From IMG/VR virus record IMGVR_UViG_3300047202_000060: a stretch of DNA of 64,000 bases; one strand, 5' to 3'. Under the pieces are notes generated by a model. It saw only the letters and a program-made list of their open reading frames with translations. It was not told the origin of the DNA and ran no database searches. Position numbers and translations under genes: made by a program. Shown here piece by piece: positions 587 to 45,837 of this stretch. Source of the DNA: a virus. Lineage: Duplodnaviria > Heunggongvirae > Uroviricota > Caudoviricetes. The first letter of the stretch is position 1, and every line of letters begins with the position of its first letter.

Positions 587-823
587 TTAAGTGAAATCTA
601 CTTTAACTTTGTTCGGGTTCCAGAAGGGACAAATACAACCACAAAAGAATAAACGCCCCCCGTTTCCTTTAATTGGGTTCACTATGTCAGATATATGCCC
701 TATGCCTTTAAGATGTTCTGGGTCATCTAGGTTAGGAGATGACTTTGGTTCTGTGCATTTAAAGTGTAACTTTCCAATGTTCTGTCTGTTGCCACAGTTG
801 AAACAACCTTTCTCTTGCGTCAT
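587..823 (-). CDS. small Cys-rich protein with KVKVDFT junction tail
   Basis: ends in junction cassette; CxxC pairs; antisense ORF 591..827 judged spurious. Confidence 0.45.
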   Translation of the reverse strand: MTQEKGCFNCGNRQNIGKLHFKCTEPKSSPNLDDPEHLKGIGHISDIVNPIKGNGGRLFFCGCICPFWNPNKVKVDFT

Positions 824-1281
824 GTGAAGAGCACCTTTTCCTTCCTATTTAAATGTCGTTCTGTCCATTCGTCACATTCACGGTCTATTTGCCGAACGTA
901 GAATATTTCTCCCTTCTCTTTCCAATTCAAGTGAATTTCACCTTTTCTTTTGCGTTAGGGAATCTCTGAGCCTTACAGTCATTATGAAGTCCGTTCGGTA
1001 TGTGAAGAGAAATTAAGCAAAGTTTTCGTGTTCCTATGTCGAAGCTGTGAGGACATTCAGCTTTATCAATACAGCTAGGCAATTTTTGAACTTGTGCTTT
1101 CGTGATTATTGTTATGCTTTCAACCCCTCTCTAAATTGTCCGTGTGCGAACGGTTGACCGTGATGCTCTAGGTTAGGCAGACTTGAATAAACACGCCTAA
1201 GTTTGCGGACGTTCAACGGCAAACCCCCGTAACTTTCCGCTTTGCGAGTTTACGCCGAACCTGTGAGAGTTTTCGCATCTT

Positions 1282-1297
1282 TTAATCATCTGATTAA
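1282..1297. repeat. 16-bp palindrome TTAATCATCTGATTAA
   Basis: inverted repeat copy. Confidence 0.55.
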
Positions 1298-1310
1298 TTG
1301 ATACGTCCCC

Positions 1311-1347
1311 GTCCCTTATAAATCTTTGCCACGAAAGACCGTTCTCG
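1311..1347 (-). promoter_or_regulatory. class I element copy overlapping 3' end of ORF 1316..1564
   Basis: gtcccttataaatctttgccacgaaagaccgttctcg; encodes the C-terminal VFRGKDL-stop of that ORF. Confidence 0.35.
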
Positions 1348-1564
1348 AAATACCGTTTTGTATCGTACAACTCACAAGTTTAAGCCCATATTCAGCTTCT
1401 AATTGCCTAGCCCTCTTCATTACGCCGTCCTTATAGGTTTTCACGCCTAGAATGAGCAGACAGTCTTTCATCCATCCCTCATAAACTATTAAGTTTTCCC
1501 CCTCGATTTTAGTCCCGAATCCTATACGCTCAAGTTTGCGCGCCAGCTTTGCCAAATCCGTCAT
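1316..1564 (-). CDS. hypothetical protein
   Basis: 82-aa ORF, start overlaps stop of upstream gene (ATGA). Confidence 0.5.
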   Translation of the reverse strand: MTDLAKLARKLERIGFGTKIEGENLIVYEGWMKDCLLILGVKTYKDGVMKRARQLEAEYGLKLVSCTIQNGISRTVFRGKDL

Positions 1565-1791
1565 GTAAACGCCACCTTTTCTTCTAATATCCGATTAGCC
1601 CAAGAGTTAAACTCTCTATGCCACATTTCGTCTGAAATTAACTGTGGATTTTCTTTCCAATGTGGAAAAACTTTATGATGTTGTTTTTGCCACTTTTCAG
1701 CGTGTTTTCCGCATAAAAAGATGAGAGGATTAGCAGAAAATCTTTCACCTTCATTATTACAGAAAAAACATTTTGTAAAAGTGTTAATCAT
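1561..1791 (-). CDS. small Zn-binding protein, EKVAFT tail
   Basis: CFFCNN...LCGKH cysteine pairs; junction cassette at 3' end. Confidence 0.55.
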   Translation of the reverse strand: MINTFTKCFFCNNEGERFSANPLIFLCGKHAEKWQKQHHKVFPHWKENPQLISDEMWHREFNSWANRILEEKVAFT

Positions 1792-2006
1792 GTAAAATCA
1801 ACCTTCTCAGGCGTTGTGTATTTCACCTTTCGAATTATGTCCGCATGGGTAAAATATTTCATACATTCTTTTTTTGCCACACACACGGTAAAAACGTCTG
1901 GGACTGTTGAAACTGATTCAATTTTTAGTATTGTGCCTACGGGAACGTAAGGGTTATCTGATTTAAGTAACCTAACGTAATCGCCAGCTTTTAGCGTTTG
2001 ATTCAA
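1788..2006 (-). CDS. hypothetical protein, TTG start, EKVDFT tail
   Basis: TTGA overlap with upstream stop; junction cassette at both ends. Confidence 0.55.
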   Translation of the reverse strand: MNQTLKAGDYVRLLKSDNPYVPVGTILKIESVSTVPDVFTVCVAKKECMKYFTHADIIRKVKYTTPEKVDFT

Positions 2007-2314
2007 GTGAAATCAACCTTTTCGGGTTTTACTTTTGTTTTCCAATTCGGGTGAGCCTTTAAGAAGTCAAAAACAGAAGCGCACCATCTAGGCAAATTTT
2101 CTGCAAATACACACGGAATTAACTTATCTCTGTTCTCTCTGGGGCTAATCGGGAGTTTCCTATAATCTTCCCATTTTGGAACACATTTTTTGACTCGTTT
2201 GCAATGCAAACAACAGAGGGTATTTGAATGAGAACACATCTTCGTGTCCGTAGGTTCATTATCGAAGAATCCGCTATTGCATGGTTTGATAAATTTCGGC
2301 TCTTTTTCAGTCAT
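2003..2314 (-). CDS. Cys-rich hypothetical protein, EKVDFT tail
   Basis: multiple C/H pairs; junction cassettes at 2003 and 2311. Confidence 0.55.
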   Translation of the reverse strand: MTEKEPKFIKPCNSGFFDNEPTDTKMCSHSNTLCCLHCKRVKKCVPKWEDYRKLPISPRENRDKLIPCVFAENLPRWCASVFDFLKAHPNWKTKVKPEKVDFT

Positions 2315-2471
2315 GTGAACGTCACTTTTTCCTTCGTCCGTTTGACCTCTTCGACTGTCAGAATGCCCCCTTCGTCCATTGCGTTCGAAAGGAGAACGTC
2401 CCGAACGTCATTCTCGCTAGGGGGGTCATCCCCTTCGTATGTGACTAGGAACCTTTTCTTTGCCATATTTA

Positions 2472-2834
2472 TCACCTATTCCAATAAACCTCTCTCATAG
2501 TGTTTCCGATTCGTTTTATATCATCATAAGTTTTCACGTTGAACGAAAAACTTCCATCTTTGTTTTGTTTGACTAGAATCAAAATGCCCCCTTCTTGCAA
2601 ACGATTAACTTGATGAATCCTAAGTTGGGAAAATCCCCCAAATTCTTTTTTAGCTTCAACCGTGAATAATTCGCCCTCTTCTTGAATCCAAAAGTCACAG
2701 CCTAGATTCTTTTTATTTCTAAGTTTTCCATTGATGTCCGCGTATGTTTTGCCGTCATTATATTCGTCAATAACAGTAAAGCCTAGCTCTTTACACCAAT
2801 TTTTCGCAGGGTCGGTTGACTTGTCATTTTGCAT
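2472..2834 (-). CDS. hypothetical protein
   Basis: 120-aa ORF with normal composition; degenerate class I-like element TTTAGGACGCG 10 nt upstream. Confidence 0.5.
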   Translation of the reverse strand: MQNDKSTDPAKNWCKELGFTVIDEYNDGKTYADINGKLRNKKNLGCDFWIQEEGELFTVEAKKEFGGFSQLRIHQVNRLQEGGILILVKQNKDGSFSFNVKTYDDIKRIGNTMREVYWNR

Positions 2835-2867: not shown

Positions 2868-3356
2868 TCATAGGTTTTCGATTAATTCTTTTGCTTTCTC
2901 TTTGTCTTTCATTCGTGCAAAAAAGTGAATTGTTCTATGGCATTTCCAGCAAAGAGGAACGAAATCCTTTATATGTTTGAAGGTGTAATATGGGTGTTCA
3001 ACGTGTGGTTTGCCGTGTATTTCGTGATATTCAATAGTGTGGGTTCTTCCAAATAAATTGCCCTCTTCGTTACACAAAACGCAAGTTTTTCCCAAAATTT
3101 CTACAACCATAATTCGATATTTTTCCCTTCTACCTTTGAGATATTGAAGGTTTGCTTTTCGGTATTCTGGGTTATTTGCCATTTTTTCAAGTCGGGTTTG
3201 AGTCAATTTCTTATAACGGTCTTTGTGTTTTTGGTAATAGTCTTTTCGGTAGTCTAACATTCTTTGTTTATTCTTTTGGTAATAGTCTGCCGAATATTTC
3301 CTCATATATTTGGGGTCTTTGCGTATTCCTGTTTTCGTCATTTTGATGAACCTCAT
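2868..3356 (-). CDS. HNH endonuclease family A with YYQKHK basic repeats
   Basis: VLCNEEG...YHEIHGKPH...DFVPLCWKCHRTIH; repeat N-terminus RKDYYQKHKDRYKK. Confidence 0.65.
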   Translation of the reverse strand: MRFIKMTKTGIRKDPKYMRKYSADYYQKNKQRMLDYRKDYYQKHKDRYKKLTQTRLEKMANNPEYRKANLQYLKGRREKYRIMVVEILGKTCVLCNEEGNLFGRTHTIEYHEIHGKPHVEHPYYTFKHIKDFVPLCWKCHRTIHFFARMKDKEKAKELIENL

Positions 3357-3393: not shown

Positions 3394-4086
3394 TTATTCG
3401 TCTTTGTCCTTTGCTTTTGCCTTTGCCTTTTGGGCTTTTTGTTCAGTTAAGAATGCTTCCACGCTTCCATTGAGTTCATCGAGCATATTTACGGTGTCTA
3501 GCATTTCGTTATAGCGTTCGTGTCCCTTCATGCTCTCAATATGACTGTTGCAAATTTCTACTGCCTTTCTACATCTCCACAACGTACTCTGAGCCATGCG
3601 TTTGTCTTTCACTCCGTCCTCTGCCATCTTTACGTGTTCCATTATGAAGTTTAGAATGAACTCTGCTTTCTTGTCCTTATAGTTTTCGAAGCCCTCTGGG
3701 GTCGTGAAAATCGGTATGATACGAATACGAGAATCAATATCATCAAACCCTTTTGTTTTCGCTTGAGCCTTTATCCCCTCAATTTCGGCAACTGCAATAT
3801 CCAACTTATCTCCATTCAAAAACCAAGATGACTCAAGATGTTTTACCGCATCAAGTTTGAACTTTAAGGTAAAGGCAATTTTGTTTCTGATAACCCTAGC
3901 CAACTTATTGAACCGTTCGTTTGCATCTCTTTGTTCTTTTGTCAACTTTTTCTTTTGTGCGTCTGTGAGATAGTGCTCACTATAAAGGTCATATTCCAGA
4001 CTCCAAATCGTGGAGCCATAAAGACCTAATTGTTCGAGTGCTTTCTCATCGATTATTAGCTTGTTCGACTTTTTCTGTTCAGACAT
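3394..4086 (-). CDS. hypothetical coiled-coil protein with KAKAKAKDKDE tail
   Basis: 230-aa ORF with normal composition. Confidence 0.5.
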   Translation of the reverse strand: MSEQKKSNKLIIDEKALEQLGLYGSTIWSLEYDLYSEHYLTDAQKKKLTKEQRDANERFNKLARVIRNKIAFTLKFKLDAVKHLESSWFLNGDKLDIAVAEIEGIKAQAKTKGFDDIDSRIRIIPIFTTPEGFENYKDKKAEFILNFIMEHVKMAEDGVKDKRMAQSTLWRCRKAVEICNSHIESMKGHERYNEMLDTVNMLDELNGSVEAFLTEQKAQKAKAKAKDKDE

Positions 4087-4099
4087 ATTTGTTCACTAA

Positions 4100-4115
4100 T
4101 TAATCATATGATTAA
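4100..4115. repeat. 16-bp palindrome TTAATCATATGATTAA
   Basis: inverted repeat copy flanking class I element. Confidence 0.55.
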
Positions 4116-4119
4116 CCGA

Positions 4120-4152
4120 CTTATAAAGTTTTCCTAAGAAACTCTATGCTCA
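4120..4152 (-). promoter_or_regulatory. class I element copy overlapping 3' end of HNH gene
   Basis: cttataaagttttcctaagaaactctatgctca; encodes NEHRVS-stop of HNH 4134..4814. Confidence 0.4.
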
Positions 4153-4814
4153 TTTAGTTCATTAATCATTTGATTAACTAATTTGAATATTTCTTCCTTC
4201 TTCTTATTGCCCAAGTTCAAAAGATAATGAGTAACATTATGACATCTACAGCATAGAGGTATAAAATCTTCTAAATGCCTCATAATGTAAGCGTAAGTGT
4301 AAGTATGAAGTTTTCCATGAATCTCATGGTAATGAATTATTCTTTTTGAATTACCACAAATCGAACAAATTTTTCCCAATTTTATTTGAACAATATTTTT
4401 CTGTTCTGAATGGTGTTCTCTTTGATATTTTTCTATTCTTTCTTTGTTTTTTCGATTATATTCTTTCTCGTATTCTTTATGTTCCAGATGCCACATTCTA
4501 CTTCTTTCCTTAGCCTTTTCTCTATGTACTTCTCGATATTGTTTAGCCCATTTATTTATTTGGTTTTTGTGTTGTTCATAATATTCTTTTTTTTGTTGTT
4601 TTACTTCTGGGAGTTGTCGGCGTTCTTTCTCACGGTTAAGAATTTTCTCACGATTTTTCTCATAATATCCTTTGCTTCTATTTCTTTCTTGTTCCAGATG
4701 TTCAAGACGATATTGTTTGGCGTATTCTTTATGTTGTTCCTTATGGGTTTGATTATATTGTTTACCATATTGTTTCATATATTGTTTTTCTTGCGTTGAA
4801 TCCTTATACGGCAT
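4134..4814 (-). CDS. HNH endonuclease family A with long K/Y/H-rich repeat N-terminus
   Basis: ICSICG...YHEIHGKLH...DFIPLCCRCHNVTH; start moved from 4844 to the Met 34 nt downstream of TTATAAA box at about 4849. Confidence 0.6.
   Translation of the reverse strand: MPYKDSTQEKQYMKQYGKQYNQTHKEQHKEYAKQYRLEHLEQERNRSKGYYEKNREKILNREKERRQLPEVKQQKKEYYEQHKNQINKWAKQYREVHREKAKERSRMWHLEHKEYEKEYNRKNKERIEKYQREHHSEQKNIVQIKLGKICSICGNSKRIIHYHEIHGKLHTYTYAYIMRHLEDFIPLCCRCHNVTHYLLNLGNKKKEEIFKLVNQMINELNEHRVS
4162..4177. repeat. 16-bp palindrome TTAATCATTTGATTAA (inside HNH 3' coding region, encodes NQMIN)
   Basis: inverted repeat copy. Confidence 0.5.
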
Positions 4815-4846
4815 TCGACTCACCACTAATATAGAACAACACACTC

Positions 4847-4870
4847 ACTTATAAACCTTTCGGTTTGGCT
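4847..4870 (-). promoter_or_regulatory. TATA/BRE-like promoter (cacTTATAAAcctttcggtttgg variant)
   Basis: same variant recurs at 11264 and 15588 upstream of HNH-B genes. Confidence 0.4.
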
Positions 4871-4902
4871 TAACAAAAAAAGAGAAAATAACTGTGGTTG
4901 GT

Positions 4903-5061
4903 TTATGGAATTTCAACTAAAGGGGCATAAACACTTTGATTATATGTATATTTTTTGCCACATTTATTGCATTTCCACTCAACCCAAGTAAAGTGCATTT
5001 TCCGTTCTAATTCATTTCCACAGTTTGGGCATTGCTTATGTTTAATAGCAAAAACTGCCAT
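4903..5061 (-). CDS. small Zn-ribbon protein (52 aa), missed by the 60-aa ORF cutoff
   Basis: MAVFAIKHKQCPNCG...CNKCGKKY; downstream of class I element at 5109. Confidence 0.35.
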   Translation of the reverse strand: MAVFAIKHKQCPNCGNELERKMHFTWVEWKCNKCGKKYTYNQSVYAPLVEIP

Positions 5062-6923: not shown

Positions 6924-7820
6924 TTAGCTCTCTTCCTTCTGCTTTTTCAGCTTCTCGACATCTATCTCGTCCGAATCTTCGAAGAAGCTACGGAACAGGT
7001 TCCTTTCCTCTTTTGCGGTGTAAAGTGAGCTTGCAATGTCTATGATGTCCTCTTCCGACATCTTTGCTTTATAGAGTTTGCCGTAGTTTATTAGGTTTCC
7101 TGTCGTGAGGGGCGTTCGAAGTTTTCCGTTCTCGTATTCGGTTCGGGTCTTTTTGCCAATTTCAACGAACTTCGATGCAAATTCGTATGCTTTGCCATCA
7201 TTGCCAGCGAATTTCTTTATCAAATCACGCTCTTTCTGGGGGCTAAGGTAGTCAATTATCAAACCTTCGAAGCGTCTAATCGTTGCAATGTTTTCGATGA
7301 ACGTCCCAGAGTAGCCCGATTTTTCGCTAGGGTTATACGAGATGACTAGGTAGTGCTGTGCTGTGCGCTGAAATTCCTTCTTGTATTCTGGAATCCAGAC
7401 CGAACCCCTAAAGTCCGCTAGGCTTTCCAGAAGTGAAATTATCGATGGTTCCGCATAGTTGAACCCGTCTATGTAAAGTAAACCCTTCGGCGAATTGAGC
7501 CATTGAATTATTATTCCTTCTCTTGTTTCCGTGTTGCCTTTGCTCAATGTGTCACACGCCAGCAAATCCCATTTTGTCACATCTCTCGTGAGCACAATTT
7601 CGAAAAGTGGAACCTCTAACAACTCTGCCAATTTATGAACCAAAGTTGTTTTGCCCGTCCCCGTTTCGCCGACTAATCGCAAGTTTCCGACAACCTCAAG
7701 AATCGCCCGTGACTTTTCAATGTAGTTATGTTCGTCCACGAACTCTATGCCTTTGACGTAGATGCCAGCACCTTCAAGTGCTGATTCAACCTTCGCATGG
7801 ATTTTTTCAAATTCAGACAT
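6924..7820 (-). CDS. MoxR/CobS-like AAA+ ATPase
   Basis: Walker A GETGTGKTT; AAA_5-like layout; paired with the vWA gene upstream. Confidence 0.7.
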   Translation of the reverse strand: MSEFEKIHAKVESALEGAGIYVKGIEFVDEHNYIEKSRAILEVVGNLRLVGETGTGKTTLVHKLAELLEVPLFEIVLTRDVTKWDLLACDTLSKGNTETREGIIIQWLNSPKGLLYIDGFNYAEPSIISLLESLADFRGSVWIPEYKKEFQRTAQHYLVISYNPSEKSGYSGTFIENIATIRRFEGLIIDYLSPQKERDLIKKFAGNDGKAYEFASKFVEIGKKTRTEYENGKLRTPLTTGNLINYGKLYKAKMSEEDIIDIASSLYTAKEERNLFRSFFEDSDEIDVEKLKKQKEES

Positions 7821-7893: not shown

Positions 7894-7909
7894 TTAATCA
7901 TCTGATTAA
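7894..7909. repeat. 16-bp palindrome TTAATCATCTGATTAA
   Basis: inverted repeat copy. Confidence 0.55.
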
Positions 7910-7958
7910 AATTCCAGAAAAATCGAGTTCCGCCGAACCGCAAGTTGCCCTAAAAAAC

Positions 7959-8393
7959 TTAGATAGTCTTTTGTTTTACAAATTCTTGAATTTCGTTTAA
8001 TTCCATTTTACAAATCTGATGAAGAAAGTGAAAACCTTTATGGCAAATATGGCAGAGAGGAATAAAATCCTCTTTGTGGTTTGCATAATACGATAAGCTA
8101 ATCGGGTGTTTTTTCCAATGAATTTCGTGAAGCATTAACCCCTGTTTCGAATCACATGATAAACACTTATCTGGAAATAATGCTTTTACCTTTTCACGAA
8201 ATAGCTTTTTCCTTTTGGATTCTTTTTCACGATTTTTTGAATAGTATGTTTGGTTTCTAAGTTTTCCAGCTTCGTGATTTTCTACGTAGTTGTTTCTGTG
8301 TCTTGCGTTTATTTTTTCTTTGTTTCGTGCGTGATAATCTCTTTGGGCTTTCCTTTGTTTTTCTTTGTCTTTATATGGCAATTCCATCACCAC
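7959..8393 (-). CDS. HNH endonuclease family A
   Basis: CLSCDS...LHEIHWKKH...DFIPLCHICHKGFH; basic N-terminus. Confidence 0.65.
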   Translation of the reverse strand: MVMELPYKDKEKQRKAQRDYHARNKEKINARHRNNYVENHEAGKLRNQTYYSKNREKESKRKKLFREKVKALFPDKCLSCDSKQGLMLHEIHWKKHPISLSYYANHKEDFIPLCHICHKGFHFLHQICKMELNEIQEFVKQKTI

Positions 8394-8417: not shown

Positions 8418-8439
8418 TATTTAAAGGTTATGGTTTGGC
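8418..8439 (-). promoter_or_regulatory. class II promoter element
   Basis: ctatttaaaggttatggtttggc, 25 nt upstream of ATG 8393. Confidence 0.4.
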
Positions 8440-10205
8440 TATTTCTGGGTTTCCACGTTAAGGTAAACTTGAAGGAAGGCTTTTGGTAACTCAGAAATTT
8501 CCTTAATACGGGTTCGTGAAACCTTTAAGTTACGAACTTTGTTTGCAAAAGTTTCCACATTATCAGCATCACAGAATCCAATAAAGCATACTTCAATTCC
8601 ACTACGGGTGTACTGTTCGATTAAGTTCTCTGCTTTTTGCTCGTCATCACCGTTAAAACAGAAATCGCTTGCTATTACAAGAATCTTTCTGCGTTCGCCC
8701 TTTATGGAATTGAACATTTTTAAATGTGCCTCAAGCAAAACGGAAACTTCAGTTCCCCCAGCATTTACGGAAATCGCCCCGATTCTTGCTCGTGTGTTTT
8801 CGAATGTTTCGAAATGTGACTTTACTCGTTGACTATCAGCACCGAACGCGGAAATTGAGAAACCATAATCATCAACGTAATGACCGAAAACTTCGTTAAG
8901 AATTGTCGTTATTTTCTGTGCTTGGTTTCTATCAACTGAACCCGAATAATCGAATAGAAAAGCTATAGCTACTTGTTCTTTTTCGAACTTCGTGGTCGTT
9001 CGCAAATACACATTACGAACGGTTCCGCGAAAAGAGTTAGTGTAGATTCGTGGAACTATCGGTGACATCATTTTGCCCCTTTTCTGGAATATCTCCCGTG
9101 ACACTCGTGGTTTCATTCTAGTTTTCAAAAGGTTAAGTAATTCTGTAATTTCTGGTTTACACTCATCGAGTAACTTTGAGTATGCTTCAAAGTCAGGCTC
9201 AGGACTAGGTATTTCGATTCCCGTGCCTTCGCCAGCACCCGAACCTTTCTGTAAATCTTCAAGATGTTTCTTTTTGTCCTCTTCTTGTTGTTCTTCCTTC
9301 TCTGCTTGTTCCAGAAGTTGTTTCAATTTATCCGAAATTTTGCCCTTTATGTTTCCCCCTCTACGAGAAACAACGTATTCTTTTGTGGTATAGTCAGCTT
9401 TAAGGTGTTTAGCTACTAAATCATAAATTGCTTGGCATGAACGAATGATGTCCAACTTAACGCGCTGATATTTGGTTCCCTCTAGGATTTTCAGGGCTTC
9501 CTCTGTGTCCTTTCGAGTATCGGGGCTAAGTTTGTCCCACAATTCTGTGCATTTAGCTTCATATAGACCTTCATTGCACAAAATTGCAACCATGTAAACC
9601 CCTTCTTGTTGTCCAGCTTGAATTGGCATGGTTATATTTGTGTTTTCTCCCAAGCTTTCACCTTTCGGGAGAATTGAAGATGTCCGTATCTGAGGCTTTT
9701 CTATCGTGTTGTCAATCATATCCTTCAATATCAAGTTCGCCAAAAGAAGCCTTTTTCCGACATCGAACCTATATCTGAGGATAATAAAGTGATTAATGCG
9801 TTTATCTTCGACCAAATTGCAAACTTCATGAGCCAGCTTATAGTAACCACGCTGGCGTTTGATTTTCGTTGTCCAATTGTTGAAAAACTCCCAATTTGGC
9901 TTTGTAAGGATTAAATGACCGCATTCGTGAGCCATATCTCCGTCCAGAATCTTTCTGAACAATCTCGGAGAAGTTTTCACGAAATCGGGATAACTTTGCA
10001 AACTTAGAGAAATTTCAAAATTTTCCATGTTAAAAGCAGAAGTTGGTTGTTCTGGAATATACTTGACACGAATCCGTTTGTCCTTTGTTATGGCAATGGC
10101 TAAGTTTCGCATCTCATCGAGAATTTTTGAGAATGCCCCATTATCTTTCTGTGGTTTCTTCTTTTGGTAACTCATTCTCTCACGCCACAATAAGAAGCTA
10201 ACCAC
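8439..10205 (-). CDS. vWA-domain protein (CobT/NorD-like) with N-terminal HExxH motif
   Basis: MIDAS motif DYSGSVD in AIAFLFDYSGSVD; MAHECGHLIL HExxH; 588 aa; follows the AAA+ gene. Confidence 0.65.
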   Translation of the reverse strand: MVSFLLWRERMSYQKKKPQKDNGAFSKILDEMRNLAIAITKDKRIRVKYIPEQPTSAFNMENFEISLSLQSYPDFVKTSPRLFRKILDGDMAHECGHLILTKPNWEFFNNWTTKIKRQRGYYKLAHEVCNLVEDKRINHFIILRYRFDVGKRLLLANLILKDMIDNTIEKPQIRTSSILPKGESLGENTNITMPIQAGQQEGVYMVAILCNEGLYEAKCTELWDKLSPDTRKDTEEALKILEGTKYQRVKLDIIRSCQAIYDLVAKHLKADYTTKEYVVSRRGGNIKGKISDKLKQLLEQAEKEEQQEEDKKKHLEDLQKGSGAGEGTGIEIPSPEPDFEAYSKLLDECKPEITELLNLLKTRMKPRVSREIFQKRGKMMSPIVPRIYTNSFRGTVRNVYLRTTTKFEKEQVAIAFLFDYSGSVDRNQAQKITTILNEVFGHYVDDYGFSISAFGADSQRVKSHFETFENTRARIGAISVNAGGTEVSVLLEAHLKMFNSIKGERRKILVIASDFCFNGDDEQKAENLIEQYTRSGIEVCFIGFCDADNVETFANKVRNLKVSRTRIKEISELPKAFLQVYLNVETQK

Positions 10206-10803: not shown

Positions 10804-11235
10804 TCAAAGTAGGGGTATATAACCTAGCCACTCATAAACTTTGTTGTTTATTTCTGTCATACCTTCACCTGTCCAGACATTATGCCATATAGATGTATGA
10901 AGTTCTTCTGGAATGTAGATAACAAAATTCTTATCTATATGATGGGCTTCTAAATCAGCAAACGGTTCGTTTAACGAAATAAAACCTAAACCACGTCTTT
11001 TGTGCTGATGTTTTATCCATATTTCTCTAGTTTGTTCTGGATGATTTTTTATCCAAGTTTTTGCTTGCTTTTTCACTTTCTCTTTATTAAGTTGATAATA
11101 TTTTTTATAACGTTTTTTCGCTTGTTCTTTATGTGTTTGAGCATATTTTACATTTTCAATTTTTTTTCTTAATATTACATCTGGACGTTTGCGATATTCT
11201 TGCATATATTCTTTTCTTTGTTTTTTCGTCCACAT
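10804..11235 (-). CDS. HNH endonuclease family B (HHID..IPxELHxxIWHN type) with basic repeat N-terminus
   Basis: GLGFISLNEPF..EAHHIDKNF..IPEELHTSIWHN..EINNKVYEWLG. Confidence 0.65.
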   Translation of the reverse strand: MWTKKQRKEYMQEYRKRPDVILRKKIENVKYAQTHKEQAKKRYKKYYQLNKEKVKKQAKTWIKNHPEQTREIWIKHQHKRRGLGFISLNEPFADLEAHHIDKNFVIYIPEELHTSIWHNVWTGEGMTEINNKVYEWLGYIPLL

Positions 11236-15556: not shown

Positions 15557-15587
15557 TCTATTCACAAATAACAATAATGTGTTTCAG

Positions 15588-35250: not shown

Positions 35251-35501
35251 GTGAACTCAACCTTCTCTGAGTCTCCTAGCGTTAAGAAAACGTGATTATT
35301 TTTCGGCTCAAACATTGTGCCGTCCATTTTTCTATTCCAGACACACACCAATGATTCTTTACTTATAGAGTCACATCTTCGAACGAATTGAGCACCGCAT
35401 TCATTACAAAGCATATTCACTTCTTTCTTGCATATATCTCGTGAGTGACATATAGGACATCTAGTGAAGTTTAGTTTTAACTCTATTGGTATTTTACTCA
35501 A
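35247..35501 (-). CDS. Zn-ribbon protein, EKVEFT tail
   Basis: CPICHSRDIC...CNECG. Confidence 0.5.
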   Translation of the reverse strand: MSKIPIELKLNFTRCPICHSRDICKKEVNMLCNECGAQFVRRCDSISKESLVCVWNRKMDGTMFEPKNNHVFLTLGDSEKVEFT

Positions 35502-35746
35502 GTGAACGACACCTTCATGGGTCTATTTATTCTTTTCACAGTCACCTTTAGACCTAGATAATTCGATAAATACATTGAGTGTTCATACGCATCATCATCA
35601 CAAAATTGGGCGGTATTAAGTTTTCCTTGTATTTGATAGAAAAAAACGAACTCTGCCTCTTTAGGGCATTGGTCGTTATGACCGTGCATTGCTATACATC
35701 TAACTGGTCCATTTTTTCTTATGCTATCAATAATTGTTCCTATCAA
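35498..35746 (-). CDS. hypothetical protein, MKVSFT tail
   Basis: 82-aa ORF. Confidence 0.5.
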   Translation of the reverse strand: MIGTIIDSIRKNGPVRCIAMHGHNDQCPKEAEFVFFYQIQGKLNTAQFCDDDAYEHSMYLSNYLGLKVTVKRINRPMKVSFT

Positions 35747-36036
35747 GTGAATTGCACCTTTTCCTGTTTTTTATCTAAGGTTGTTATAACTGGAATAGTT
35801 TCTGTTGGTGCTCGAACATCTGGATATTCTTTACTCTCGACAACTACGTATAAAATTGCCCTCATATAGTTGTGCGTTATTTCGACAACTTTAGCATCTG
35901 CTGGGAACCTGTTCTCTATAATCATGAAATTGTCTTTGCCATTATGACTAACAAAACTTTGCATTGAACGTTTGGTAGGCTTTAATCCCATATCTTCACA
36001 AGAACAATCTAAGAAAGGCATAAAAACTCTTCTCAT
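35743..36036 (-). CDS. hypothetical protein, EKVQFT tail
   Basis: 97-aa ORF. Confidence 0.5.
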   Translation of the reverse strand: MRRVFMPFLDCSCEDMGLKPTKRSMQSFVSHNGKDNFMIIENRFPADAKVVEITHNYMRAILYVVVESKEYPDVRAPTETIPVITTLDKKQEKVQFT

Positions 36037-36236
36037 GTGAACTGCACCTTAACAATTTTACTATCAAGAACACACCATTTATACATCTCACATTTTTCAG
36101 TACATGGCATATACTTTGATGGGTAACATTTATATCGTCCTTCCTTTTGGGCTTTAACCCATATTTGAGCATCTTTCTCATTCATGTGAACTGGACCTTC
36201 TCCCTTTTGCCCATAAGTGCTATATAAACCGTGCAA
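36033..36236 (-). CDS. hypothetical protein, VKVQFT tail
   Basis: 67-aa ORF; further cassette copies at about 36345 and 36525 mark unlisted ORFs under 60 aa. Confidence 0.45.
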   Translation of the reverse strand: MHGLYSTYGQKGEGPVHMNEKDAQIWVKAQKEGRYKCYPSKYMPCTEKCEMYKWCVLDSKIVKVQFT

Positions 36237-36616
36237 TGTTCTTTTAATCTACAAGAGTTTATACAGTATTTTTCCTTATCACTCGAATCATGTACTGTGC
36301 ATCCAGAAATACGCCAATCATTTTTTACAACTTTATAATGTATCAAGTAAATTGTACCTTCTCATTTTCTTCTATTTTTATCAAATGCTTCTTTTCTTTT
36401 TCTCCATAATGGTTAATTTGAGCCTTTGTTCCATGAGCACAAAATAATCTGCCAAACTTATCAGACTTTATTACGCATCCTTTGACAGTAAATGTGCAAC
36501 AAGTACATCTATAAGTTGTCATGTAAATTGAACCTTCTCTCTTTGATAATGTTTAGCAAGCCGTCTAAACCAGCGAAGCCGCCTGAAAATAAGTGGGTAG
36601 TTTATATCCTTTCTCA

Positions 36617-36853
36617 TCATGAAAATTGCACCTTTACTCCTAATACAATTACCTCTTTTACTTCTCTAGCTGTTACAGTTATTCCTTTCCACTCTGGGTG
36701 CTCAATTACTCGAACAAAAAGAATTGTCTCATCCGTGCTCATAAATGGACTAATTATATAACGAGAACCTATGGAAGTTACTTTGCCATGAAGTGTTTCT
36801 TCGCCACGCTCAAACACTACTACATCGCCAGTTTTTATCTTATCTATTTTCAT
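36617..36853 (-). CDS. hypothetical protein, VKVQFS tail
   Basis: 78-aa ORF. Confidence 0.45.
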   Translation of the reverse strand: MKIDKIKTGDVVVFERGEETLHGKVTSIGSRYIISPFMSTDETILFVRVIEHPEWKGITVTAREVKEVIVLGVKVQFS

Positions 36854-37168
36854 GTGAATTGAACCTTCTCCCTTTCTTTTATGACATCATAAAATCTTAT
36901 TGCGGCTCACATTCTACAAAGTTCGAAGTCATCTCTTTTGCCATCACAGCCGTTTGAGTCGAAGCATTCGCTGACATATGGACAGATGCCATTCTTCTTG
37001 AAAAATTCTAGTTCTTCATACTTATTCATGTGAACTGCACCTTTATTAATTCAGTTTTCTCTCTTTGTTTTTTCTGCATCCAAACTGCAAGCGCAACGTA
37101 CCAAGATGCTTTTCTAACTATATATGCGTCATAGAATGCTGAACCTTTAACAAAACATCTAGGGTCGC

Positions 37169-37363
37169 TCATGTAAATTCAACCACTTCTTTTGTGCATT
37201 GTTCAAACGAATATTCTTTCTGGCATTTCATACACCAGATTTTTCTAGGAATAACAAGATTTAAACCAGAACCGTCATTTAATGGTCTAAGGAAATACCC
37301 ACCTACCCCTTGAAGTCCTTCCTCATCGCCACACTTGGGACATTTCCACTTGTTGCCGCTCAT
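37169..37363 (-). CDS. Zn-ribbon protein, EVVEFT tail
   Basis: CPKCGDEE...CMKCQ. Confidence 0.5.
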   Translation of the reverse strand: MSGNKWKCPKCGDEEGLQGVGGYFLRPLNDGSGLNLVIPRKIWCMKCQKEYSFEQCTKEVVEFT

Positions 37364-37629
37364 GTAAACTCTACCTTCTCTTTTCCAGATATTAAGTCAC
37401 AAACCTCAAACTCTTTATTAGCTTTTCTCAAAGTTTTTATAAGGGGTCTATAGTGTTCTTCACAGAGATAAACCCATATAGCATAAAGAACAATTTGACG
37501 GTCCGCATCATAAACGTAATCAAATACTACTCTATATCTAGCTTTCTTTCCACATTTAGCAGACCCACATTTAGATTTTTTCTCATCATTGTCTGGTTCT
37601 CTTTTCACATCATACATTTGCGTAATCAT
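37360..37629 (-). CDS. hypothetical protein, EKVEFT tail
   Basis: 89-aa ORF. Confidence 0.5.
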   Translation of the reverse strand: MITQMYDVKREPDNDEKKSKCGSAKCGKKARYRVVFDYVYDADRQIVLYAIWVYLCEEHYRPLIKTLRKANKEFEVCDLISGKEKVEFT

Positions 37630-37768
37630 TCTCTAACAAACCCCGCGCCCTTACATCTTCTACAGGGAACCCTAATCCACCTATCAGGTTGACTTGCAGT
37701 TAGAAAAGGATTTCTCATAATGAGATAACCTATTCCCTTACAACATGGACATTCCCTTAATGGTCTCA

Positions 37769-38017
37769 TCATGTAAACGTCACCTTCTCCTTAGCTTTCC
37801 AACGCGCCTTTTCCTGTTCTGCTCCTTCGGCTACCCCGTCATCATGCCCTGAGTCATAGCCGTTAGTATATCCTTCTTCCTTTCCCTTATCATATCCCTC
37901 TTGAAATGCTTCTTTCTTAGACTCTATAATCGCCAAATCTACTAGGTCTTGCAAATCTTGGTCTAAGTTGTCCATGATTTGTTTTAATGTCTTGGACTTT
38001 CGAAGATGGATACTCAT
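37769..38017 (-). CDS. acidic Gly/Tyr-rich hypothetical protein, EKVTFT tail; start trimmed from 38047
   Basis: ATG 31 nt downstream of TATATAAA box. Confidence 0.45.
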   Translation of the reverse strand: MSIHLRKSKTLKQIMDNLDQDLQDLVDLAIIESKKEAFQEGYDKGKEEGYTNGYDSGHDDGVAEGAEQEKARWKAKEKVTFT

Positions 38018-38046
38018 TTTACATCTGGGAATACTAAGGCGAACCA

Positions 38047-38081
38047 CCTATATAAACTTTGCGCTAGAACCACCTTACTCA
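38047..38081 (-). promoter_or_regulatory. class I element copy
   Basis: cctatataaactttgcgctagaaccaccttactca. Confidence 0.4.
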
Positions 38082-40596: not shown

Positions 40597-40865
40597 TAGT
40601 CAATTACCCCTTTTATATGTAATTTTCGATGCATACAATCACCATACATGTGATTTGCTTCTCTTGGTTCTATTTCTACTCGTATATCTTTTCTTCCATT
40701 AAATTGATTTTCAAGTGCCTTTTTATGGTGGGTTGCTATCTGTTCTTTTAAATCAACAGAATAAAGTTGTGGAATCCAAATTACATCTTTTCCCTCATAT
40801 TCTCTAAACCAAACCCAAACAAGCCAAATAGGAATTTTAGTCGTAGTAAAGTCGCTTCCTATCAA
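40596..40865 (-). CDS. hypothetical protein
   Basis: 89-aa ORF. Confidence 0.4.
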   Translation of the reverse strand: MIGSDFTTTKIPIWLVWVWFREYEGKDVIWIPQLYSVDLKEQIATHHKKALENQFNGRKDIRVEIEPREANHMYGDCMHRKLHIKGVID

Positions 40866-41223
40866 CGCCTAACTCTAGTAAAGCTTTCTTTACAACATCT
40901 ACGAATTCCAAGTTTTGACGCGCTCTAGGACATTTCTCTTGTATCTCATTCCAATAATGGTCCCAGCCGTGTTCCAGACTAAAGAGTATTAATGCCGCGC
41001 AAGCTAAAGTGTTTGAACGAGACATTCCAGCCATACACCTAATAATCACTCTTTCTCCGCACCCCAATAAGTTTGCAATCAGAATAATCTTTCGTTTTAC
41101 AACCTCAATCGTGTTTTCTGCTGAATCATTTAAATCTCTCACATCTACGATAATTGTACCTTCTGGTGTGTAACTTTCGAGCATATTGCAAGTTCCTAGA
41201 TTGTTCCATATCCAATATACCAT
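40837..41223 (-). CDS. dual-specificity (CX5R) protein phosphatase-like
   Basis: P-loop IRCMAGMSRSNT matches HCxxGxxRS signature. Confidence 0.6.
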   Translation of the reverse strand: MVYWIWNNLGTCNMLESYTPEGTIIVDVRDLNDSAENTIEVVKRKIILIANLLGCGERVIIRCMAGMSRSNTLACAALILFSLEHGWDHYWNEIQEKCPRARQNLEFVDVVKKALLELGVDRKRLYYD

Positions 41224-41687
41224 TATTTCTCATTCCTCACTTTAGATTCTCTTAATCTCGTTATATCATTCCAAGAAAGACCCAAAAATCTCATACAAAA
41301 ATGGGTGAAACTATGACAAGACTTGCATAGTGGAGCAAAATCTTCTTGATGGTTTATTATGTATAATCTTGAAGAACTATGAGGATTTCCGTGTATTTCG
41401 TGAGCGTGTATTCTGTAATTATTTGGACTATACCCACAAATCAAGCATTTATTCCCCAAAAGCGAGACAATTTTTTTATTATACTTCTCGTTAGTTCTTC
41501 TTGCATTTATACGATGCCGCTCTAAATAACGAATTCTATGATTGGCATCGTAAGATTCTGTCCTCTTTCTTTTACAATCTTTACAAAGATATTCATAATT
41601 TCGTTTTCTGTATTCTGTCCAGTTTGTTCCTAAGATAAGGGCACACCCACAATCCTTGCATTTGTCTTCACGCCATTTATTTGCCAT
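41223..41687 (-). CDS. HNH endonuclease family A with N-terminal Zn ribbon
   Basis: CKDCGC...CKDCKRK; LLGNKCLICGY..HAHEIHGNPH..DFAPLCKSCHSFTH. Confidence 0.6.
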   Translation of the reverse strand: MANKWREDKCKDCGCALILGTNWTEYRKRNYEYLCKDCKRKRTESYDANHRIRYLERHRINARRTNEKYNKKIVSLLGNKCLICGYSPNNYRIHAHEIHGNPHSSSRLYIINHQEDFAPLCKSCHSFTHFCMRFLGLSWNDITRLRESKVRNEK

Positions 41688-42338: not shown

Positions 42339-42359
42339 TACATATTAGATAGGTATAAA

Positions 42360-43304: not shown

Positions 43305-44278
43305 TTTCGATTCCTCAATCTTCTAAAGAATGCAACTATTCTATTCTCTTTGTATTCAGCTTCTACTATCTTTTTTACTATTGTATTAGTCTCTTTCTGT
43401 TCAATATGATGATCTTGACAATAATCGCAGTAAAGACGGTAAAAATCATATTCGGGGGCACTACACATATGTTTTTCCATTTCCTTTTTAATGTATGTCG
43501 CAACTACTGGCATAGCATCACGTTTTATTGAGAATTTTTCTCCCAAATCTGCATAGGCTTTATCAACCGCACCCATAGCTTCACTCAAAGGCAAAGGTGG
43601 ATATACTGGTCTGCCTTTCTCAAGTTTAGGTTGTCCCCTCGACTTAGCAGTATCCAATTTTTCTTTAGCATATAACGGGTTTCCTTCGGCAGTAAGTGTT
43701 TTCAAAACAACTCCTTCTCTGTGTTCTTTTTTACAAAGTTCCAGCATTTCATCTCTATAATTGTAAAGTGATTCCATACTGGTAAATCGTCCTTCTCCAA
43801 AGAGTTGAACACACTTCATACCATAATGGAAACAAATTTGATGAATCTGTTGATAATTAAGAAAATGATTTCCGTCAAAAATATCGAAGACTATATATTC
43901 TGTTTCTATATGATTTTCTATTCGTGTTGGAGACAATCCTTTTCTCAGAAGTTCTCCAAAAACTGTATGAGTTGGATTTTCTATAAGATATTCCAAAATT
44001 GCTTGTCGTTCCTTAGAATACTGAAAATCTCTTGTAATAGAATCTTCTGCTTTTTCCCTATTTCGACTAGAAACAACTAAATATCTTATTATTGGCTTAT
44101 GAAAGATTTTTCTCAATGATGTTTTCAGTCCAGTTATTGGCTTCATCCAGATAGCTAGACATGAACCATCACGCTTTTCGGTCCAGTAAATATAATGACC
44201 TAGAAGCACTCTACCTTCATTTGGAAGATGCTGAATTTTCTCTAATTCCATATAACGCCAAACTTTCATGAGTACCAC
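43301..44278 (-). CDS. ATP-dependent polynucleotide ligase, Rnl1-like RNA ligase candidate
   Basis: motif I KRDGS in TEKRDGSCL (compare T4 Rnl1 KEDGSL), motif IV REGVVLK, motif V LYAKEK. Confidence 0.6.
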   Translation of the reverse strand: MVLMKVWRYMELEKIQHLPNEGRVLLGHYIYWTEKRDGSCLAIWMKPITGLKTSLRKIFHKPIIRYLVVSSRNREKAEDSITRDFQYSKERQAILEYLIENPTHTVFGELLRKGLSPTRIENHIETEYIVFDIFDGNHFLNYQQIHQICFHYGMKCVQLFGEGRFTSMESLYNYRDEMLELCKKEHREGVVLKTLTAEGNPLYAKEKLDTAKSRGQPKLEKGRPVYPPLPLSEAMGAVDKAYADLGEKFSIKRDAMPVVATYIKKEMEKHMCSAPEYDFYRLYCDYCQDHHIEQKETNTIVKKIVEAEYKENRIVAFFRRLRNRK

Positions 44279-44568
44279 ATTTCTTTCTTCATTATCATCA
44301 TTTGTTTAAAGTGACAAGAAGTACATTCCCAAATTGTAAGATAGATTATTATACTGTGTTCGGGTGAATCAAATGTTTCGCTTATCTGGGCATCAATAAC
44401 CTTGCTATAAACATGACCATCACATCTGAAAATGGCATTACCTAGAGATTCCAATATATAGAGAAATCTATCTCTCAATGTGGCTGGACGTTCAATCTTA
44501 CAGAAAATAACTTCGCTAGGCTGAGAGAAGATAGCTTTATTTCTTCTCATAATCATTTCTTTGAACAT
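44266..44568 (-). CDS. hypothetical protein
   Basis: 100-aa ORF. Confidence 0.4.
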   Translation of the reverse strand: MFKEMIMRRNKAIFSQPSEVIFCKIERPATLRDRFLYILESLGNAIFRCDGHVYSKVIDAQISETFDSPEHSIIIYLTIWECTSCHFKQMMIMKKEMWYS

Positions 44569-44570
44569 AT

Positions 44571-45278
44571 TTACTTTTCCTTCTTTTTGGTTTCTTTCAT
44601 TTTCTTTTTAAGTTCGGCTATATGAGCGTCTTTCTTCTTTATATCTTCTATAAGTTTCGCGGTTTCAGGGTCAATCAACGGTATCATTTCTTCTTTTGTT
44701 GGCATTAAAGTTTGCGGTGTCTTTATTTGAGCCAAACTTGCTCGGCGTTCAGCTTCCATTACGGCACGTACCTTCTTCTGTTGCTCATATAATTCCGCTT
44801 TTCTAGTTTCCTGAAAGTCTGCTTTGGTCTTTTCCAAAATTTCATGTCTGTAAATATCTGCATTAGTTATAGTATCTGGAATTACTCTCATATTATCAGG
44901 CACACCCATTTCAAGTTTTCGTTCACGTTTTTGAGTTGCTTGGGTAGCCCTAGTTTGATAATTACGACACTTTTGACACATTGATTCTTGTGGAACCATA
45001 ACATTTTCAACTTCTGTATTCGACTCCATTTTTAATCTCCTTTCCTTTTCTTCGAAACTTCTAGTTGAACCTTCTATCTTTGTGCCCATATTATTCCATT
45101 CGGCTGGAATAGTTCTATGAAATATTTTATTACATTTAGGACAAGCAAAAACACCATCAGAAGGTTTCATCAACACAGTTCTATCATCAGAACAAGTATG
45201 TTTCTTGAAAACGTAAACCTTCAACATAGATACCCAATAATCTTGTCCACATGACATACATTTTTGTTTTTGTTTCAT
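44571..45278 (-). CDS. Zn-ribbon plus coiled-coil protein
   Basis: CMSCG...CPKCNK; C-terminal lysine-rich coiled coil. Confidence 0.5.
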   Translation of the reverse strand: MKQKQKCMSCGQDYWVSMLKVYVFKKHTCSDDRTVLMKPSDGVFACPKCNKIFHRTIPAEWNNMGTKIEGSTRSFEEKERRLKMESNTEVENVMVPQESMCQKCRNYQTRATQATQKRERKLEMGVPDNMRVIPDTITNADIYRHEILEKTKADFQETRKAELYEQQKKVRAVMEAERRASLAQIKTPQTLMPTKEEMIPLIDPETAKLIEDIKKKDAHIAELKKKMKETKKKEK

Positions 45279-45307
45279 ATTAAATCACTATTAAGATAAT
45301 AACTTAC

Positions 45308-45343
45308 CTCTATTTAAACTTTGCGTAAGAAAGACTATGCTCA
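45308..45343 (-). promoter_or_regulatory. class I element copy abutting junction cassette
   Basis: cctctatttaaactttgcgtaagaaagactatgctca, box 32 nt upstream of 45278. Confidence 0.4.
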
Positions 45344-45516
45344 AGTAAACTGCACCTTCACTTTAGCATTTTTAGGTCCGAAATAATATTTCTCAAACAT
45401 TATCTTTACACACCTGTCCATCTTCAATCTTTTACCCTCTCCAAATGAATGAATTACAGCTTCGACATATCTCGTATGCCATTTTATCTTTTTCATAAGC
45501 ATAGCAATCGATTCTG

Positions 45517-45837
45517 TCATGTAAATTGCACCTTCTCTCTATCATGCATAAACCTGTAATATTCATGAGCAAGCCATACAAACCATCTCATACAAGCTCT
45601 ACAATTGCTACCGCATTTTGTAGTAGGCGGTGCAACGCCATTATACGATTTTGTTTGCCCCATCGTCCCGCCATTCTCGGAGTCCATATCCTTTCTTGGG
45701 TTTAATGAAGACAAGTGGACCATGTGTAAAAGACATTTCTCTAGCTTCCCGCTGTACTCTTGGTATAAATTGAATTTTATCTTGTACACTCCATTCTGTT
45801 TTTTGGTTGGTTTGAATATCTTTCTTGAGAAGACCAT
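45517..45837 (-). CDS. hypothetical Cys-containing protein, EKVQFT tail; N-terminal extent uncertain
   Basis: overlaps 45641..46387 by about 197 nt in another frame; internal Met at about 45663. Confidence 0.4.
   Translation of the reverse strand: MVFSRKIFKPTKKQNGVYKIKFNLYQEYSGKLEKCLLHMVHLSSLNPRKDMDSENGGTMGQTKSYNGVAPPTTKCGSNCRACMRWFVWLAHEYYRFMHDREKVQFT

Follow-up and report, generated by a model that had tools for sequence, protein, structure and literature searches.

Why should dozens of dissimilar small genes end in the same few codons? The question is raised by a stretch of DNA of 64,000 nucleotides (nt), IMG/VR virus record IMGVR_UViG_3300047202_000060 (Caudoviricetes), the whole of which is called the window below. 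A first-pass annotation had described about 50 gene junctions on its minus strand as copies of one conserved 20-nt word that carries a ribosome-binding site and the next start codon, and that forces the ending E-K-V-x-F-T on the upstream protein. We favor another answer and consider it likely: the junction would be a dual-coded module, in which a signal for termination-reinitiation coupling (the restart of a terminating ribosome on the next gene) is combined with a lineage-specific C-terminal docking tag.

A recurrent gene end in the window

The junctions are as numerous as had been claimed, and every coordinate listed for them checks out. At three or fewer mismatches the 21-mer GAGAAGGTGCAATTTACWTGA matches the minus strand 27 times and the plus strand never, while shuffled sequence leads one to expect 0.00 matches. 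Scored by the encoded tail, 53 minus-strand open reading frames (ORFs) end in [VI]-x-F-[TS]-stop, with the general form [K/R/P]-E-K-V-x-F-T, and they make up about one third of the roughly 170 ORFs called in the window. The stop is TGA after A, T or G in 51 of the 53 tails, creating an ATGA, TTGA or GTGA overlap with the next start codon (the other two stops are TAA, at 587, and TAG, at 16650). A GGTG Shine-Dalgarno (SD) sequence lies 7-8 nt upstream of the restart codon and downstream ORFs tile exactly onto the overlapping restart codons, so that the proposed pairing of a correctly spaced SD with a restart codon overlapping TGA is confirmed in 51 of 53 cases. The junction on which the description is based, the tail-bearing arrays and their immediate surroundings are as follows.

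17195-17215, minus strand: type junction, GAG AAG GTG CAA TTT ACT TGA, encoding E-K-V-Q-F-T-stop, with SD AAGGTG and a TTG restart overlapping TGA (0 mismatches)
587-1082, minus strand: array of three tail-bearing genes, the last of which (587-823) has the ending KVKVDFT-TAA; its codons are relaxed (AAA GTA) and lack GGT
1561-2475, minus strand: array of four tail-bearing genes
11299-14646, minus strand: array of 13 tail-bearing genes, several of them paralogs in a zinc (Zn)-ribbon superfamily (CxxC...LCxxC..W)
11299-11538, minus strand: last gene of that array, which keeps its tail though no gene follows
16650-18065, minus strand: array of six tail-bearing genes
16650-16829, minus strand: terminal gene of that array, ending EKVEFT-TAG (ACC TAG, no restart codon) and followed by intergenic promoter DNA
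19614-21145, minus strand: array of six tail-bearing genes; after its last tail, at 19614, comes a promoter, GCAAACGTTTATATA, at 19584-19598
24256-24384, minus strand: lone tail-bearing gene of 42 amino acids (aa), a paralog of 17665-17793
33972-38047, minus strand: main array, 18 tail-bearing small genes and two tail-less ones, chained by ATGA/TTGA overlaps
37626-37772 and 36907-37029, minus strand: the two tail-less genes inside the main array
33691-33975, minus strand: tail-less, conserved gene that follows the main array
38049-38064, minus strand: promoter resembling a B recognition element (BRE) plus TATA box, GCGCAAAGTTTATATA, ahead of the main array; the similar GCAAACGTTTATATA stands at eight other minus-strand intergenic sites
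45341-45837, minus strand: array of two tail-bearing genes; the consensus 21-mer occurs unaltered at 45517-45537

A promoter of the BRE/TATA type lies ahead of each array, and we therefore regard the arrays as operons; the main array is taken as one operon because of GCGCAAAGTTTATATA in front of it. A tailed gene stands at the end of five of the seven multi-gene arrays. The tail-less 48-aa protein encoded at 37626-37772 has two CxxCxGxG repeats, a zinc finger of the DnaJ cysteine-rich type, and its relatives (from nine sources) always come next after the first array gene or one position further on.

Sequences carrying the same gene end were found elsewhere. One exact variant of the junction pattern retrieved 55 metagenome loci from lake-sediment and peat samples, and a 1.9-kb contig binned as Pacearchaeota also matches the junction pattern. 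A match in a metagenome-assembled genome of Bathyarchaeota was set aside as a single, chance-like hit in an unrelated context. The 31 fetched sources with at least three tails (window included) yielded 306 unique junctions, 283 of which (93%) have the form NTGA with N being A, T or G. A larger set comprises 382 unique tails, for which the presence of Phe was the selection criterion. One junction in a related locus has decayed (L044, oriented coordinates 929-1097): it reads ...KEKVRFT followed by W, where TGA has become TGG, and four more residues, a loss of the stop.

Selection on the encoded peptide

Conservation at these junctions does exceed what a ribosome-binding site needs, as had been claimed, since relatives keep the whole motif and not just an SD of 4-6 nt. 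A fixed 20-mer is not what is conserved, however. Information content along the motif is periodic in three bases, with 1.8-2.6 bits at codon positions 1 and 2 against 0.2-0.9 at position 3, so that every third base is loose. In the 382 tails Phe (382/382, by selection) is written TTT or TTC about equally and never TTR or TAY, Glu is GAG or GAA, and Val (371, the rest being 11 Ile) occurs in all four GTN codons; the last residue is Thr in 318, Asp in 42 and Ser in 22. An independent set of 223 NTGA junctions, picked by GGT at -13 to -11 alone, has TTY at codon -2 in 217, with Leu and Tyr never found there, and its last codon specifies Thr (197), Ser (11, by both TCN and AGY), Asp (10, GAT), Ile (2) or Asn (1). 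Between pairs of tails, the Phe codon at -2 differs synonymously in 49% and non-synonymously in 0%, and the Val codon at -4 in 57% and 6%, respectively. In one family of 126-aa proteins, orthologs end in ...REKVQFT or ...REKVQFD, although ACN and GAY are two base changes apart.

Variation that is almost wholly synonymous, Ser reached through two codon families, and a two-change swap between Thr and Asp argue for selection at the level of amino acids. As judged from these sequences, the conserved element is not a DNA word of 20 nt, and the peptide is selected in its own right. The same three observations speak against the model of the first-pass annotation, in which the module is a DNA cassette boundary of 20-21 nt (a recombination site plus a ribosome-binding site) kept for gene shuffling, with the peptide as a functionless by-product: the changes match the degeneracy of the code (Glu varying by R, Phe by Y and Val by N), Ser is written by unrelated codon families and Thr to Asp takes two steps. 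We consider that model improbable, and return to it with the evidence for shuffling.

The peptide is strongly confined to protein ends (263 C-terminal occurrences versus 11 internal ones, with 4.5 internal expected), and tailed proteins are small, with a median of 75 aa. Families are for the most part either purely tailed (57) or purely untailed (90); eight are mixed, mostly through artefacts such as truncations or a lost stop. Searches of the tailed proteins against Pfam and PHROGs returned only zinc ribbons, KOW-like bits and ORFans. Clustering of the 382 tailed ORFs without their tails gave 152 families that lack BLAST similarity to each other, which speaks against the idea that all of them belong to one ancient, hyper-diverged gene family whose last surviving structural element is the tail. 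A Zn-ribbon superfamily can be detected, to which eight paralogs of the window and 113 clusters of the protein library belong, and arrays do grow by duplication, as pairs of paralogs attest. The architectures are nevertheless unrelated (an all-beta fold of 126 aa, a Zn ribbon plus helices, and one tailed protein with an N-terminal hydrophobic stretch that resembles a membrane helix by eye), and the tail of the modeled Zn-ribbon protein lies outside the folded domain. Common descent of the tailed genes thus seems very improbable to us.

The AlphaFold model of that Zn-ribbon member, the product of the gene ending at 17195, was built on a 64-sequence alignment and has a domain with a predicted local distance difference test score (pLDDT) of 85-93, followed by a tail in coil at pLDDT 49. 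Within the alignment the tail is among the best-conserved parts, behind the zinc-binding Cys residues and one Trp. Being conserved, disordered and terminal, it bears the signature of a short linear docking motif. The 126-aa tailed protein (34136-34516, minus strand) is modeled as all-beta, and its best structural matches, Hcp and phage tail-tube proteins, stay below threshold (template modeling score ~0.5, E ~1e-3).

The restart signal and its separation from the peptide

The codons of the tail also carry a signal at the level of nucleotides. Lys at -5 is AAG in 183 tails and AAA in 12 (94% AAG versus 29% in the background), and Lys at -7 is AAA in 101 and AAG in 52, the genome background being 71% AAA. 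Val is GTG in 55% of tails versus 13%, Glu is GAG in 59% versus 22%, and ACC, which would turn the overlapping "start" into CTG, is absent at coupled junctions versus 12% in the background. On the strength of these codon biases and of the missing ACC, we conclude that selection acts at the nucleotide level on the G's forming AAGGTG and on the restart codon. AAGGTG is a partial match to the SD of the genome itself, GGTGAT (the reference here is the free-standing SD of the genome). Over the 306 junctions the restart codon is TTG in 137, ATG in 132 and GTG in 14. The window also has 20 tail-less ATGA/TTGA overlaps, which show only a loose GAGG, GGAG or GGTGA at variable spacing and in which ATG dominates (14/20); their existence indicates that the tail is not required for coupling as such.

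An overlap of stop and start with an intragenic SD is the known arrangement of termination-reinitiation coupling in archaea and bacteria (Huber et al. 2019, PMC6728339). The junctions resemble that system (PMC6728339) in their 4-nt stop/start overlap, in a normally spaced SD inside the upstream gene, at its 3' end, and in serving distal cistrons, the first gene lying right behind the promoter with apparently little or no leader. Ordinary coupled junctions share only an SD of 4-6 nt, whereas here spacing and frame are fixed and TTG equals ATG; and, unlike in ordinary coupling, the last 6-7 residues of the upstream protein are conserved as amino acids in more than 150 families.

Where no gene follows, the two layers separate. 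Among 36 unique tails without a downstream ORF, GGT occurs in 50% instead of 79% (p=6e-4) and GTG in 33% instead of 60% (p=0.004), and 10/36 use ACC or GAC versus 0/250 coupled tails. The V-x-F-T/D peptide is retained at these uncoupled ends, including in a family that is always operon-terminal. In two Logan contigs (L066 and L067), FD tails written with GAC use TAATG or TGATG restarts in place of NTGA, and the peptide is again kept. The claim that a nucleotide cassette is conserved and merely forces the tail therefore fails on two counts, as variation follows the genetic code and the peptide persists where the SD and start relax. The same two contigs (Logan SRR22234385 and SRR22234378, respectively) carry V-x-F-D tails at up to half of their junctions, mixed with V-x-F-T within arrays, and KVMFD recurs.

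Selection on amino acids next to a restart site could also reflect an effect of the nascent peptide or of the last two tRNAs, which would tune termination so that the ribosome stays and restarts, a prokaryotic cousin of 2A and arrest peptides. Conservation covers the last 2-6 residues ahead of the stop, which are close to the peptidyl-transferase centre at termination; the tail almost always stands at a coupling site (93% NTGA); the parity of TTG with ATG at tail junctions, set against the dominance of ATG at tail-less overlaps, hints at an unusual restart; and sequences around the SD are known to affect coupling in unexplained ways (PMC6728339). Such an effect is hard to reconcile with tails kept at operon ends that have no gene to restart, even in the always-terminal family, with tails kept under TAATG, TGATG, or an AGG+TGA SD with the start 4-6 nt downstream, or with 20 coupled junctions in the window that lack the tail. 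Alleles of the tail moreover differ among sister clades (described below) despite the high conservation of ribosomes, and neither 'nascent' nor 'C-terminal' appears anywhere in a 2025 review of translational coupling. We give this account little credence.

Further explanations at the RNA or DNA level were rejected. A hairpin sequestering the SD through GUG...YAC complementarity finds no covariation (-10 versus -4, p=0.99) and no gain in folding energy worth the name (-4.1 versus -3.8 kcal/mol in shuffles). Frameshifting or fusion by -1 or +1 slippage on TTT ACA TGA is opposed by the absence, on inspection, of a re-pairing codon. Recoding of TGA does not fit a genome in which all three stops are in use and ORFs tile through ATGA overlaps. 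A promoter inside the motif was dismissed as well: the junction alignment has no conservation at -22 to -30 or downstream of the motif, and BRE/TATA motifs occur in true intergenic gaps only.

Sister clades with other tails

A profile of the Zn-ribbon superfamily matched 113 clusters among 1.84 billion representatives, with the canonical tail in 101, and the exceptions led to two further clades. In the clade of the window (clade 1), 40 sources have 469 Phe tails versus four Tyr tails, a Tyr count consistent with chance ORFs. Clade 3 (two loci, L071 and L072) is related to the window by its KaiC-like ATPase (46% identity) and an NTPase (41%), and in it 22 and 15 array genes end in K-V-K/R-V-I/V-Y-T, with no Phe tails. 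The encoding is ...GTG ATH TAY ACN TGA, so that GGTGAT is spelled by Val and Ile. Clade 2 (L068-L070) has only ...K-P-F-I/V-F-R, encoded CCN TTY ATH TTY AGG TGA; here AGG+TGA forms the SD, with the start 4-6 nt downstream of it, and P-F-I-F, which is conserved, stands outside the SD and varies synonymously.

All three clades have upstream basic residues, a residue of hydrophobic type at -4 and, one position before the free carboxylate, an aromatic residue that never varies. Different peptides on different geometries of SD and stop again oppose the notion of a tail forced by a nucleotide cassette, and the synonymously variable PFIF codons of clade 2, outside the SD, count in particular against a DNA boundary. 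Alleles that are uniform within a genome and variable between clades, with free synonymous sites, fit co-evolution of a tag with its reader better than a DNA site or a peptide directed at the ribosome, as far as sequence comparison can tell.

Gene shuffling at the junctions

The main array lies between conserved flanks, and its content and order differ in every relative. Among 212 junction pairs that share the upstream family, only 15 also share the downstream family. In high-scoring segment pairs of at least 88% identity, 24 of 36 internal ends fall within -25 to +5 of a tail stop, versus 7.7% expected, which agrees with the earlier expectation that differences in gene content between related genomes break at the cassette. 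Two relatives (L020 and L013), for example, have flanks 98% and 96% identical around a differing middle, with one crossover in the last bases of the motif. Contiguous identity between motif copies is only ~5-6 nt, and there was no clear signal of variable tail bases travelling with either the upstream or the downstream gene.

Several observations favor a DNA boundary: shuffling is extreme with breakpoints inside the motif, tails that are uniform in a genome and different between clades resemble concerted evolution, the AAG bias is partly kept in uncoupled tails, and the free-standing HNH endonuclease genes of the window, at least 12 in number, could be the drivers of the observed recombination. 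Identity of some 5-6 contiguous nt is, on the other hand, a poor substrate for recombination; breakpoints at gene ends are expected anyway, recombinants within genes being purged; and evolvability, as a target of second-order selection, would hardly keep more than 300 sites in place across genomes with orthologs of only 30-90% identity. Of the earlier proposal of a cassette boundary for shuffling, the heavy shuffling with breakpoints in the motif stands, and shuffling as the reason for the motif does not. Shuffling is more likely a consequence of uniform ends and of purged intragenic recombinants, and we attribute its extent to every cassette ending in the same module.

The HNH-type endonuclease genes are scattered between the arrays. 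They are paralogs with the motifs HHID..VVYIP.ELH or YHEIHGK.H...DF.PLC..CH and long repetitive N-terminal parts rich in Lys, Arg, Glu and His.

2868-3356, 4134-4844, 7959-8393, 10804-11235 and 15020-15574, minus strand: HNH-type endonuclease genes
24583-25029, 25217-25651, 29116-29745, 41223-41687, 52175-52954 and 52951-53481, minus strand: HNH-type endonuclease genes
32917-33240, plus strand: HNH-type endonuclease gene, the only clear plus-strand gene

Two cassette systems invite comparison. In T4-type phages, promoter early stem-loops (PeSLs) are intergenic units of ~50-70 bp, promoter plus stem-loop, conserved as DNA/RNA (PMC2839356, PMC4122927). As with PeSL cassettes (PMC2839356, PMC4122927), a short standard sequence borders small variable ORFan genes in hyperplastic regions and marks the breakpoints of gene gain, loss and replacement; unlike a PeSL, the tail motif is coding, lacks promoter and hairpin, and is conserved as peptide plus SD. 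The arrays also recall integron attC cassettes, in which promoter-less small genes are shuffled in arrays behind one promoter, each with a standard boundary. The attC site, however, does not code for protein and is an imperfect inverted repeat that an integrase recombines, whereas the tail boundary is coding and has no hairpin, and no integrase was found among the Pfam matches of the larger genes of the window.

Nature of the element and its probable host

The G+C content is ~36%, and all genes lie on the minus strand apart from the HNH gene just listed. Genes with intergenic spacing are preceded by (TA)GGTGAT, the usual free-standing SD of the genome, and BRE/TATA motifs of the GCAAACGTTTATATA type lie in gaps 25-40 nt before starts (eight on the minus strand versus ~1 expected in total). 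Together, these gap motifs and the SD point to an archaeal host, and by its sequence this uncultivated, virus-like element is probably archaeal. Larger genes encode a PAPS (phosphoadenosine phosphosulfate)-reductase-like protein, a MoxR AAA+/VWA pair (6924-7820 and 8439-10205), an SPFH protein, an RNA ligase, a glycosylation cluster, a KaiC/RadA-like ATPase (26623-27558), an HtrA-like protease (53940-54824) and a protein with a weak dual-specificity phosphatase match. No capsid, portal or terminase was seen among the genes of the window or the fetched loci, and a scan of IMG/VR with three junction patterns and the KaiC-like ATPase gave zero matches. For these two reasons we do not apply the label "virus" with confidence and go no further than "virus-like element". 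Against sequenced phages, neither megablast of 33000-38000 nor tblastn of the first array protein detected similarity; a database search with that protein gave a single match. No known RNA families or tRNAs were found in the window.

The proposed tag and its reader

In the mechanism that we propose, a BRE/TATA-like promoter precedes the first gene of an array, and AAGGTG ahead of the overlapping ATG, TTG or GTG would, by analogy with known coupling, let the terminating ribosome restart on each next gene. The same codons spell the heptapeptide [K/R/P]-E-K-V-x-F-[T>D>S]; selection on it is seen, and its function would be that of a tag, a short amphipathic strand with an aromatic residue before the free carboxylate, through which roughly one third of the proteins would dock on a single shared partner. 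Such a partner would give the tagged proteins a shared fate, be it timed turnover, sequestration or delivery. As for evolution, the breakpoint pattern is observed, and crossover inside the shared module would swap genes while sparing frames, tag and coupling. A broader version, which we hold tentatively and think somewhat readier to fall than to stand, is that in large archaeal virus-like elements one machine reads a genome-specific C-terminal address peptide on the small accessory proteins, which evolve fast and make up about a third of the proteome, and that tag, translation signal and recombination joint travel together as a portable gene end.

As the class of reader, we favor pockets that bind hydrophobic-aromatic-X-COOH tails. 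The hydrophobic-tyrosine-X (HbYX) motif is the C-terminal docking motif of the proteasome activators PAN, Cdc48 and Blm10/PA200 (PMC10349882). Several features agree: HbYX is strictly C-terminal, with the free carboxylate one residue past an invariant aromatic and a last residue that is nearly free; V-I-Y-T of clade 3 and F-I-F-R of clade 2 fit hydrophobic-aromatic-X, with Ile or Val at -3; all three clades have the tail at the same distance from the stop; and the probable archaeal host would have a 20S proteasome. The window and clade 1 depart from the motif in lacking the penultimate Tyr (Phe in 382/382, without the hydroxyl for the Gly19 hydrogen bond; Tyr is confined to clade 3, at 22/22) and the hydrophobic residue at -3, where Gln or Glu stands in 236/382 and Leu in 18/382, with some Val, Ile and Met among cluster representatives. 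HbYX is also found on a few ring-shaped activators, in contrast to the dozens of small monomeric proteins here. A reader pocket like the HbYX pockets of the archaeal 20S proteasome is a lead, though one that we consider improbable. The MoxR-VWA pair and the KaiC-like ATPase are other candidate readers. The HtrA-like protease was rejected as a PDZ-type tail reader, its match covering the protease domain only, with no room for a PDZ domain.

A different docking consensus, RVxF ([KR]-[VI]-x-[FW]), is matched by K-V-x-F in 250/382 tails, and the tail is disordered in one model; RVxF, however, is not bound to the C-terminus. No PPP (phosphoprotein phosphatase)-family phosphatase was found, only the weak dual-specificity match in a small conserved protein at 40837-41223, minus strand (Pfam 2e-6, below the gathering score; PDB DUSP16 4e-4). 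That protein is of interest because the last tail residue alternates between Thr or Ser and Asp, and the two together hint at phospho-regulation.

Several points weigh against a docking tag. Its candidate function is drawn solely from patterns of conservation. The K-V of clades 1 and 3 coincides with the SD (AAG GTG), and these residues are possibly held by the RNA. AAG still outnumbers AAA by 15 to 4 in uncoupled tails, a residual pull at the nucleotide level, which could reflect recent uncoupling or homogenisation by recombination. The tail nearly always adjoins a coupling site, which would not be required of a pure protein tag. Two features of HbYX fail in the tail of the window (Phe for Tyr, and Gln or Glu at the hydrophobic position). 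Finally, in the model of the 126-aa all-beta protein the tail is a short beta-strand after a low-confidence linker, perhaps packed on its own domain.

Short signals that are carried by many unrelated proteins and read by one machine are familiar from the C-terminal signals of type IV secretion, from peroxisomal targeting signal 1 (PTS1), from ssrA-type C-degrons and from RVxF docking to protein phosphatase 1 (PP1). To our knowledge, no such targeting or docking signal is known in viruses of prokaryotes or fused to a translation restart signal, and we know of none that exists as genome-uniform alleles differing between sister lineages. Literature searches with the peptide strings, and for HbYX in prokaryotic viruses, returned nothing relevant. 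The coupling layer is ordinary and shuffling at cassette borders has a precedent in the PeSLs of T4; in the literature searched we found no description of a proteome-wide, genome-uniform and clade-variable C-terminal peptide written into a restart signal.

If the docking tag is real, dozens of small viral ORFans that resist annotation would be linked to one common pathway, a previously unknown system of protein sorting or turnover in viruses of prokaryotes, and a synthetic peptide of seven residues could fish out the reader. The junctions would be a clean natural case of dual coding, with RNA and protein constraints separable since coupled and uncoupled junctions behave differently. Uniform gene ends would make the cassette pool freely exchangeable without dedicated recombination sites, and each change of allele from clade to clade (F, Y, FxFR) would be a trace of the tag evolving together with its reader. 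In practice, the motif can also serve as a sensitive marker of a group of elements for which three scans of IMG/VR with junction patterns and one with a protein gave nothing.

Other standard sequences in the window and a related locus

A conserved intergenic box, GGAATTTTAATCA, lies downstream of a G+C-rich stretch at four places.

531-543, 7903-7915, 16594-16606 and 22338-22350, minus strand: GGAATTTTAATCA boxes

A BRE/TATA-like motif follows ~40 nt downstream of the boxes at 531, 7903 and 16594, and none was found near 22338. The same arrangement recurs after the terminal tails of a related locus (L049), and the unit may be a terminator plus operator.

A second standard gene end was noted in the glycosylation cluster, where three large proteins have ...P-H-P ends.

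58757-58775, 59521-59545 and 62224-62245, minus strand: P-H-P junctions

Two of these junctions read CCA CAT CCN TAG GTGAT(N0-3)ATG, the TAG stop being part of a TAGGTGAT SD. The junction at 62224-62245 has the TAG-in-SD geometry too, and its upstream protein ends in ...PHPPISL. This geometry matches that of the clade-2 tail (AGG TGA).

In one related locus (L032, oriented coordinates 3878-4925), a protein of 348 aa carries long collagen-like GDKGDKGDTGATGATG... repeats flanked by hydrophobic ends.

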